From: Escherichia coli
GTDB lineage: Bacteria > Pseudomonadota > Gammaproteobacteria > Enterobacterales > Enterobacteriaceae
Direction: 5' to 3' (one strand)
NCBI RefSeq assembly: GCF_003018235.1
Contig: NZ_CP027437.1
DNA: 64,000 bases
The notes under the pieces are model-generated. The model was not told the DNA's origin. It searched no databases and saw only the letters and a list, made by a program, of their open reading frames with translations. Below, in pieces: positions 4,341 through 5,920 of this stretch. Numbering within the stretch: position 1 is the first letter of the stretch; the number at the start of each line of letters is the position of its first letter. The position numbers and the translations under genes are program-made.

Positions 4341-4748
4341 TCACCCCGCCCGATGATGACAGCAGCCGGAGAGATTTTCGATAATCGGGCAGTCGGCGCT
4401 GTCATCACCAGGGCAGGCATTCGCCAGCGCCAGTAGCTGGTCGCGCATGGATTGCAGCTCCTCAATGTGCCGTTCGATCTCCGCTACCTTCTCCAGCGTG
4501 CGCCGTTTTACATCGGCGCTGTGACGCTGTGGGTCGTTAAACAGATTCACCAGTTCGCCGCTCTCTTCCAGGTTAAAGCCCACCTGGCGCGCCTGGCGCA
4601 GTAAGGTCAGTTCGTTGAGATGCTGCTGCGTGTAGGTTCGATAACCATTTTCGCTGCGCATCGGCGGCGTCACCAGCCCCTTCTCTTCATAGAAGCGAAT
4701 GGCTTTGCTGGTCAGGCCGGTAATTTTTGCTACATCGCTAATGTTCAT
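4341..4748 (-). CDS. cueR: CueR, MerR-family copper-responsive transcriptional regulator (135 aa)
   Basis: [25 protein letters not shown]... MerR HTH; C-terminal metal-binding loop with [10 protein letters not shown]; 135 aa as in K-12. Confidence 0.95.
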
Positions 4749-5920
4749 CGTTCGCGCAACGCCTCCTGTGCTTTATTAAAGGGTTTCAACAGATAATCCA
4801 GCACGCTTTTTTTGCCGGTGCGGATATCGACCGTCGCCACCATGCCGGGAAATATCGGAAACTGCTGTTTATGTTTATTTTCCAGATGGTTGCTGAAAGT
4901 GCGAATGTACACCCGATAGTAATAAACATCGCGCCGCACTTCATCCTGCACGGTGTCTGGTGATATCACCGCCACTTCTCCCGGCAGGCCGCCGTAGCTG
5001 GAGTAATCGTAGGCGGTTATTTTCACCAGCGATTTTTGCCCCGGATGGATAAACGCCACATCGCGCGGGGAGATTTTTGCCTCGATCAGCAGTTGCTCAT
5101 CCAGCGGCACGATGGTCATCAGTTTACCACCGGGGGCAATAACGCCGCCAACCGTGGTGACGTCAATGTCCTGAACAATGCCACGTACCGGCGCGGTAAA
5201 GTTGAGCCGGGTGAGAGAATCTTCCCGCCCGCGGATCACCGAACGCTGGGTTTCTACTTCCGCATTGGCTTTCGCTAACTCTTCGCGCGCCTGAACGTAA
5301 TATTGCGTGCGCACGTCGCTGAGTTTGTTTTCCAGTTCATTGGCCTGGCGTTGCAGGCGCAGCACTTCGACGCTGCTCGCCGCCCCCTGTTTGACCAGCG
5401 GCTGGGTCATCGCCAGTTCGCGGTTGACCAGGCTAATCCCCTGCGTCAGCCCGGTGGTGGCTTTGTTCAGCCCATCGCGGCGAGTGTTGTACAACGCCGT
5501 TTCCGACTCGATAAGTTCGGGGAATTTATTCAGTTCGTCAGGGAAGACCAGCGGTTTATTGCTCACTTCCGCCCGCAGCCGCGCTGAAGTCGCCAGCGCC
5601 GCGTACAGGCGTGACATCGCTTCCTGAACGTCGGATTCCGTTTTGGTGCGATTAAGCTGCGCCAGCGGCTGGCCCTGTTCAACAATATCGCCAACTTTCA
5701 CGTTCAGATGATACAAAATCCCGCCTTCCAACGACTGTACCACCTGCTCGCGCCCGGAAGGTTCTACCGTGCCGCTGCCGGTGGTGACTTCATCAAGCTG
5801 GAAGTACCACGCCCAGCCAAGAAAACAGAGCAGCATCACAGCGGTAACGCGTACCGCCAGCGCCGAACGCGGCAGGCGGGGTTCGGTCAGGCCACGATTG
5901 TATTGCAGTTGTCCGTTCAT
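4745..5920 (-). CDS. Type I secretion periplasmic adaptor (HlyD/membrane-fusion-protein family, 391 aa)
   Basis: N-terminal TM helix, long coiled-coil region, C-terminal beta domain typical of HlyD-family MFPs; start overlaps the ABC gene by 4 bp and stop overlaps the cueR start. Confidence 0.85.

Follow-up and report, generated by a model that had tools for sequence, protein, structure and literature searches.

The closest described relatives of the locus considered here are the divergent copA-cueR gene pair, which resembles the merR/merT layout, the ybaT-cueR region of Escherichia coli K-12, and O-island 28 (OI-28) of enterohaemorrhagic E. coli (EHEC) O157:H7, in which a TolC-like gene, a giant BapA/SiiE-like adhesin, an ABC exporter and an adaptor lie between ybaT and cueR. 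The genes of OI-28 have been named tolC28, rtxA28/rtxB28, hlyB28 and hlyD28 (ecs0540-0544), and the adhesin operon is inducible by RstA (PMC12758282); control by PhoB is ascribed to it in a passage of PMC3978041 that cites Yoshida 2010. [quoted passage not shown] The original prediction for this junction was that the adhesin operon has cueR as its last gene, without an independent promoter, unless the 3' end of the adaptor gene contains one. Our results suggest, with a probability of about 0.8, that an old Escherichia-specific rearrangement made the junction and that cueR is now expressed from a weak internal promoter of the sigma-70 type and from its own ATG, independently of the operon.

The overlap between the two genes is ordinary and statistically unremarkable; a 4-nt ATGA is the commonest overlap class among co-directional bacterial genes. 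Positions 4745-4748 of the plus strand read tcat, i.e., ATGA on the minus strand, where the TGA of the adaptor gene occupies 4747-4745 and the ATG of cueR 4748-4746. The coordinates originally given for both codons are exact, and the open reading frames (ORFs) confirm that there is no intergenic space upstream of cueR. Both genes lie on the same strand, and their shared stop/start is of the kind found in coupled pairs. The downstream gene (4341-4748, minus strand, 135 amino acids, ATG start) was identified from the ORF listing and from profile matches to NF007590 (308.6 bits against a cutoff of 244, aligned over positions 1-135 of 135) and TIGR02044 (207.5 bits, cutoff 147.4), and qualifies as CueR at the equivalog level. 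The upstream gene (4745-5920, minus strand, 391 amino acids) encodes a HlyD-family T1SS periplasmic adaptor; it is hlyD28 (Z0635) of OI-28, orthologous to EDL933_RS02795, and its match to TIGR01843 (330 bits, cutoff 208.65) reaches the final profile position. Before it lies hlyB28, an LssB-type T1SS ABC permease/ATPase (5917-8079, minus strand; TIGR03375 at 836.8 bits), with which it shares a second ATGA at 5917-5920, and these two genes are co-directional with the TolC-like gene and the giant BapA/SiiE-like substrate, as expected of a T1SS adhesin operon.

The ATGA at the cueR junction is also present in EDL933, ETEC1738 and Escherichia whittamii and in the adaptor relics of K-12 and Escherichia albertii, and RefSeq annotates an identical junction in EDL933, ETEC1738 and others. 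The ATG of cueR derives from a conserved C-terminal Arg codon (CGA) of the adaptor together with its TGA; adaptor orthologues of other genera end in EALRER followed by the stop, with the codons AGA-TGA or CGT-TGA. An AGGAGG motif (4762-4767, minus strand), located 13 nt before the ATG and within the adaptor codons for Gln-Glu-Ala, is a candidate Shine-Dalgarno sequence for cueR. The 27 nt ACAGGAGGCGTTGCGCGAACG and the following ATG are unchanged in all of the Escherichia sequences examined, including that of E. albertii, in which the rest of the relic has decayed. The CueR protein of the window (4341-4748) is 100% identical to that of E. whittamii. At the DNA level, the cueR region is closest to that of one enterotoxigenic E. 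coli (ETEC) strain (99.2% identity) and only about 95% identical to that of most E. coli, a pattern that points to a divergent or recombinant allele here.

Published start-site maps provide the principal evidence for an independent cueR promoter. Cappable-seq data for EDL933 (supplements of PMC10469882) contain one gene-associated transcription start site (TSS) for cueR, at 604687; the cueR ATG is at 604847, so that this site lies 160 nt upstream of it, at nucleotide 1012 of the 1176-nt adaptor gene. This TSS was called in all eight conditions, with a read score (RRS) of about 4.2-9.0 and no differential regulation across conditions, while no TSS was called from 604688 to 604955 (-159 to +109) in any of the eight. 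The window is identical to EDL933 over -205 to -130, which places the predicted start, by homology, at an A at 4908 on the minus strand. A candidate -10 hexamer, TACTAT (4916-4921, minus strand; -13 to -8 from the TSS), matches the consensus at 4 of 6 positions, including A2 and T6, and is intact in all nine island-positive sequences that were compared; a candidate -35 hexamer, ATGAAG (4939-4944, minus strand), separated from it by a 17-nt spacer, is weak, with 3 of 6 matches. Both the assignment of the hexamers and the activity of the EDL933 start in the window strain are inferred. A primary, sense-strand 5'-triphosphate start inside the upstream gene, the mark of an intragenic promoter, is therefore on record for EDL933 and is carried to the window by homology. 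The idea that cueR has no promoter of its own is not upheld by this comparison, and the proviso that a promoter might be embedded in the adaptor gene gains support from it. The OI-28 paper (PMC12758282) contains no occurrence of cueR, and no promoter inside hlyD28 is described in published OI-28 work.

The predicted leader (160 nt; 190 nt in the segment folded) folds no better than its shuffles (z = -0.33) and matches no Rfam family. Given this unremarkable fold and the lack of an Rfam match, a riboswitch or attenuator in the leader is not proposed.

Several points weigh against an internal promoter at -160. A consensus promoter and terminator scan of positions 4300-6200, with a promoter threshold of 9 of 12 matches, found no promoter on the minus strand, and the combination ATGAAG-N17-TACTAT, with only 7 of 12, falls below that threshold. 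The promoter call therefore rests on the external TSS data and not on motif strength; of the checks proposed with the original prediction, motif-based promoter finding gave nothing and the mapped start in EDL933 spoke for an embedded promoter. That start was observed in EDL933 and transferred to the window strain by homology, its read score is modest (RRS about 4-9), and it passed the authors' signal-to-noise flag in at least one condition but not in all. It is also possible, as predicted from the gene arrangement, that read-through from the operon supplies a share of the cueR mRNA. The conservation of the promoter stretch gives a mixed result. In an alignment of six sequences (the window, EDL933, ETEC1738, E. 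whittamii, Escherichia sp. E1V33 and the E. coli representative genome), only the region from -200 to -130 of the adaptor gene yields 70-nt intervals without a variable column, against a typical value of about 10 variable columns per 70 nt. Among 959 island-positive E. coli, however, this stretch is identical to that of the window in 623 and has one to three mismatches in 336; of two control segments, identical in 0 of 856 and 436 of 959 genomes, the second is nearly as conserved as the promoter stretch. The variants sampled in other E. coli (at -189, -162 and -147) avoid both hexamers and the start. Extra constraint on this stretch is, on these sequence data, suggestive but not strong.

The gene order around cueR in other genera indicates how the junction may have arisen. 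We scanned one genome per species with a CueR query and obtained 80 loci, including 75 from non-Escherichia Enterobacteriaceae; E. fergusonii, a reported carrier of a homologous siiCA-DA operon, lies outside these 80. An adaptor gene was found upstream of cueR in none of the 75 non-Escherichia loci, and in most of them (Salmonella, Citrobacter, Enterobacter, Klebsiella, Kluyvera, Kosakonia and others) copA is divergent from cueR. Of the loci scanned, only those of Escherichia have an adaptor gene or relic in this position: E. whittamii and Escherichia sp. E1V33 carry the gene intact, in the E. coli representative genome it is frameshifted near its 3' end, and Escherichia sp. MOD1-EC7003 and E. 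albertii retain a relic. In the representative genome, a 2-bp TG insertion about 55 nt before the adaptor stop frameshifts the C-terminus, and the cueR-proximal sequence is intact. The nearest adaptor orthologues outside Escherichia, those of Enterobacter cloacae and Pseudocitrobacter, are 84-85% identical and likewise 391 amino acids long; the adhesin-ABC-adaptor operons to which they belong end at the adaptor, and the next gene is convergent and encodes an EAL-domain protein or is cho. There is thus no conserved membership of cueR in these operons, as they lack it and no adaptor precedes it outside Escherichia, and cueR is not a native member of the adhesin operon. Since the orthologous operons lack cueR, and cueR elsewhere is divergent from copA, the junction reflects an Escherichia-specific rearrangement.

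In the other genera, a GGGGGAAA ribosome-binding site precedes cueR, whose start codon, usually GTG, is about 13 bp past the -35 element of copA. Escherichia shares with them the regulator (CueR is 83-92% identical) and the copA operator sequence, which in the window lies in the copA promoter at 33978-33998 (minus strand). Unlike them, it has lost the GGGGGAAA site: its homology to the ancestral copA-cueR spacer ends directly after GGTCAAG, which implies that the ancestral ribosome-binding site and promoter of cueR are gone. The glsA-ybaT genes and the T1SS block now lie between the operator and cueR, so that cueR is about 29 kb from copA in the window and about 2.6 kb from it in K-12. Escherichia may, as a consequence, have lost a merR-style autoregulation that overlapping divergent promoters might give. 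The stop region of the adaptor gene and the start of the ancestral cueR have a TGAA in common, which points to microhomology as the possible site of junction formation.

We would therefore reconstruct the history of the locus as follows. The ATGA would be the right-hand scar of an old Escherichia-specific rearrangement, which would have separated the cueR start codon from the copA promoter by a block consisting of glsA-ybaT and the tolC-adhesin-ABC-adaptor operon; the ancestral ribosome-binding site and promoter would have given way to the 3' end of the adaptor gene. In carriers of the island, cueR would be transcribed from the -35 at 4939-4944 and the -10 at 4916-4921, starting at 4908 with a 160-nt leader, and translated from its own ATG with the help of the AGGAGG 13 nt upstream, within the adaptor codons. 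Operon transcripts from the tolC28 promoter probably also reach cueR, although cueR would not depend on them. How and in which direction the rearrangement took place, and what AGGAGG does, we likewise infer. This arrangement resembles known operons with an internal promoter and an ATGA junction, in that a start in the preceding coding sequence serves the next gene and the overlap is compatible with termination-reinitiation. It differs from them in that the two genes are functionally unrelated and were joined by rearrangement, with any coupling putative.

An alternative reading of the overlap would be that cueR has no promoter of its own and is transcribed exclusively within the tolC28-adhesin-ABC-adaptor transcript, as its final cistron, with translation coupled through the ATGA; the level of CueR would then follow RstA and PhoB. 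The absence of any intergenic space, the common strand and ATGA junctions of all these genes, and a scan that found neither a terminator between the genes nor a consensus promoter would all fit such an arrangement. We nevertheless regard it as very improbable, because a primary 5' end is present at -160 in eight of eight EDL933 conditions, within sequence that is the same in the window, because the orthologous operons lack cueR and because K-12 expresses cueR without the operon. In addition, the operon of the window appears to be broken by frameshifts in tolC28 and the adhesin gene, unless these are sequencing errors, whereas cueR is intact. The stop/start overlap does not, therefore, make cueR a passenger of the adhesin operon.

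Genomes without the island give an independent view of its boundary. A megablast search of 5,426 complete E. coli genomes with the 3' half of the adaptor gene plus cueR detected cueR in 5,424 and the adaptor gene in only 959. In the remaining genomes (about 4,465 of 5,424), including K-12, the island is absent and cueR is kept behind an adaptor relic of about 95 bp. The match in these genomes starts about 95 bp before the cueR ATG, at query positions 558-561 (window 4843-4840), and the relic, which is frameshifted, corresponds to the final 95 bp or so of the adaptor gene (window 4749-4843, minus strand). The 124-bp ybaT-cueR spacer of MG1655 consists mostly of this tail, with a 1-bp deletion and five substitutions relative to the intact gene, and ends in CGATGAAC; it translates as the adaptor tail in two pieces, of 10 and 19 residues, across the 1-bp deletion. 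NCBI PGAP calls it a 98-bp pseudogene ("frameshifted; incomplete; missing N-terminus") that overlaps cueR by 4 bp. Had the island been inserted at the cueR start codon, no such fragment would be expected; island-free E. coli keep 95-98 bp of the adaptor gene and E. albertii about 58 nt. As the adaptor tail and the ATGA persist where the island is missing, the island boundary does not lie at the cueR start codon and the absence of the island represents a deletion. The comparison with K-12 that had been proposed for the original prediction thus also speaks against it: the sequence upstream of cueR is near-identical and homologous over about 95 bp, AGGAGG and ATGA included, and the boundary is elsewhere. 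K-12 differs in that all DNA between a point midway through the ybaT terminator and one 95 bp short of the adaptor stop is missing, the -160 promoter with it, and starts at -19, -39 and -86 are used instead. From these sequence comparisons, OI-28 looks to be ancestral in Escherichia and to have been deleted repeatedly; about four fifths of E. coli would have lost it in this way.

The starts used by K-12 bear on the question of which promoter serves cueR in the window. Cappable-seq of K-12 gives plus-strand starts at U00096.2 positions 513102, 513131 and 513178, with RRS values of 3.7, 49 and 100, which correspond to -115, -86 and -39 from the ATG; the offset from U00096.2 to NC_000913.3 is 776 bp and was checked against the distance given in a sigma-54 paper and against SMRT-Cappable-seq. 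The latter reports a single-gene b0487 (cueR) transcript from 513953, and RegulonDB lists a K-12 cueR TSS at -19. The main text of Mendoza-Vargas 2009 contains no cueR data. A sigma-54 site that in K-12 lies within ybaT, 679 bp upstream of cueR (PMC4591121), is irrelevant here, since ybaT is about 27 kb away in the window. The window equivalents of the -19, -39 and -86 starts are 4767, 4787 and 4835. As all three lie within the homologous 95 bp, one might argue that the -160 signal is incidental intragenic initiation, of which the EDL933 study (PMC10469882) found many cases, and that the working promoter is in the last 95 bp, near window position 4787 or 4767; the GAATAT that lies upstream of the -39 site in K-12 corresponds to GATTAT in the window. 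We consider this unlikely. EDL933 has no called TSS from -159 to +109 in any of eight conditions, the K-12 relic differs in this region by the 1-bp deletion and five substitutions described above, and the -10 of the K-12 -86 site was made by a deletion junction that is absent from the window. For the silence of the K-12 -39 site in EDL933, hexamer assignments were tried by eye and none was convincing.

The island-free state of K-12, GE3, 90-9281 and Escherichia sp. MOD1-EC7003 goes back to one common deletion. Its left end lies in the ybaT terminator hairpin (window 31522-31544, minus strand; GCGCAGTAC-agcct-GTACTGCGC, followed by a T-rich run) and its right end about 95 bp before the adaptor stop, with the junction reading GTACT|ATTGTGG in MOD1-EC7003 and GTATT|ATTGTGG in E. 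coli. The TACTAT or TATTAT at this junction falls exactly at -12 to -7 of the K-12 -86 start (the K-12 hexamer is at NC_000913.3 513895-513900), which indicates that the -10 of the K-12 -86 promoter was assembled by the deletion. E. albertii has other deletion ends: it retains the whole terminator and, of the adaptor tail, only about 58 nt; the 27 of these that adjoin the ATG, AGGAGG included, are perfectly conserved, and the preceding 30 nt or so carry many substitutions. The cueR-proximal end of the adaptor gene has therefore been spared at least twice by independent deletions, once in E. coli and once in E. albertii, as would be expected if cueR expression depends on that end. The K-12-type deletion also left the ybaT terminator without its 3' arm and T-run, and a weak K-12 start is located at -115, just past the stop codon of ybaT; glsA-ybaT transcripts of K-12 may read into cueR.

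These deletions raise the possibility of promoter turnover, in which the ancestral -160 promoter was lost with the island and replaced in K-12-type genomes by other promoters, one of which has a -10 (TACT|AT, later TATTAT) built by the junction of a ybaT terminator arm with the adaptor relic. We put this forward tentatively, as a scenario with clearly less than even odds. If it is true, amounts of CueR would differ between island-positive and island-negative E. coli, and deletions of OI-28 or hlyD28 in EHEC would drop the cueR promoter and could confound colonisation phenotypes through copper handling.

It is also possible, though in our estimate a little less probable than the contrary, that cueR has a dual supply, in addition to the promoter within the adaptor gene that we favour. 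Here the weak internal promoter would be supplemented by read-through with re-initiation at the ATGA, so that a meaningful share of CueR would be made under RstA/Ca2+ or PhoB/low-phosphate conditions and copper sensing would be loosely coupled to adhesion. No terminator-like site was found between the adaptor gene and cueR in the scan of 4300-6200; transcription that gets as far as the adaptor gene's end should therefore continue into cueR, where the ATGA would allow re-initiation. The operon is inducible by RstA (PMC12758282) and, according to the passage of PMC3978041 mentioned above, by PhoB, and the internal TSS is weak (RRS about 4-9 in EDL933 versus 100 and 49 in K-12, values that come from different studies). 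Moreover, at the time of the ancestral insertion the old cueR promoter would have been gone, so that transcription from the inserted DNA was needed. Such a transcript, however, would have to span about 26 kb, the -160 TSS is not differentially regulated in EDL933 and the OI-28 paper is silent on cueR.

An internal promoter and an ancestral island have consequences for how several described features are viewed. OI-28 would be an ancestral element that was subsequently deleted, in contrast to its acquisition by EHEC as assumed in the 2025 OI-28 paper (PMC12758282). The textbook cueR upstream region of K-12 is the fossil tail of a secretion gene, and EHEC and K-12 use different cueR start sites. 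As deletions of OI-28 or hlyD28 remove the mapped cueR TSS, side effects on copper homeostasis need to be controlled for in virulence studies. The understanding of CueR and of type I secretion is unchanged, and all of these events are within known kinds of genome evolution.

The rest of the island in the window resembles OI-28 of EDL933 in its locus (ybaT to cueR), its gene order and its ATGA junction. The adaptor and cueR DNA are about 96% identical between the two and the tolC28 genes 98.3% identical; the two also agree in the RstA box and in the region of the operon TSS. The tolC28 gene (29862-31218, minus strand), for a TolC-family outer-membrane protein, contains an additional A in an A-run near 30383 (A7 against A6 in EDL933) that splits it into ORFs of 307 and 196 amino acids; the extra base may reflect a real frameshift or phase-variable tract, or else stem from a homopolymer sequencing error. 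The equivalent of the operon TSS (EDL933 579751) lies upstream of tolC28 at 31362 (minus strand), as located from the supplement of PMC10469882 and by alignment, with 50 nt around the TSS identical. The RstA box TAATTCAAATTACC of the regulatory region (31499-31512, minus strand) is an exact match to the sequence quoted in PMC12758282. The giant BapA/SiiE-like adhesin gene (8083-29753, minus strand; siiEA in RefSeq, rtxA28/rtxB28 in OI-28), assigned by homology to EDL933, is split by a 1-bp deletion near 28779 into ORFs at 28728-29753 (341 amino acids) and 8083-28761 (6892 amino acids), both on the minus strand; the window reads GTAGG-GCTAAC where EDL933 reads GTAGGCGCTAAC. The EDL933 gene lacks this deletion but is a pseudogene too, with an internal stop elsewhere, and the adhesin may be decaying independently in different lineages.

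ETEC1738 is 96.7% identical to the window at the DNA level from cueR upward, an identity that ends abruptly at window position 7821, inside the ABC exporter gene. In RefSeq, the "siiEA" coding sequence of this strain extends to the adaptor start and no separate ABC gene is listed; the break could reflect allelic replacement, gene fusion or an annotation artefact.

A second segment without a K-12 counterpart lies on the other side of cueR, at 1033-4340, between cueR and ybbJ; in K-12 the cueR stop adjoins the ybbJ stop. It contains a 600-amino-acid YadA-like adhesin ORF (1827-3629), a 140-amino-acid lipoprotein ORF (3715-4137) and a 113-amino-acid ORF (1137-1478). The C-terminal 250 amino acids of the YadA-like ORF are 75% identical to a 338-amino-acid EDL933 gene product, and its N-terminus is longer and divergent.

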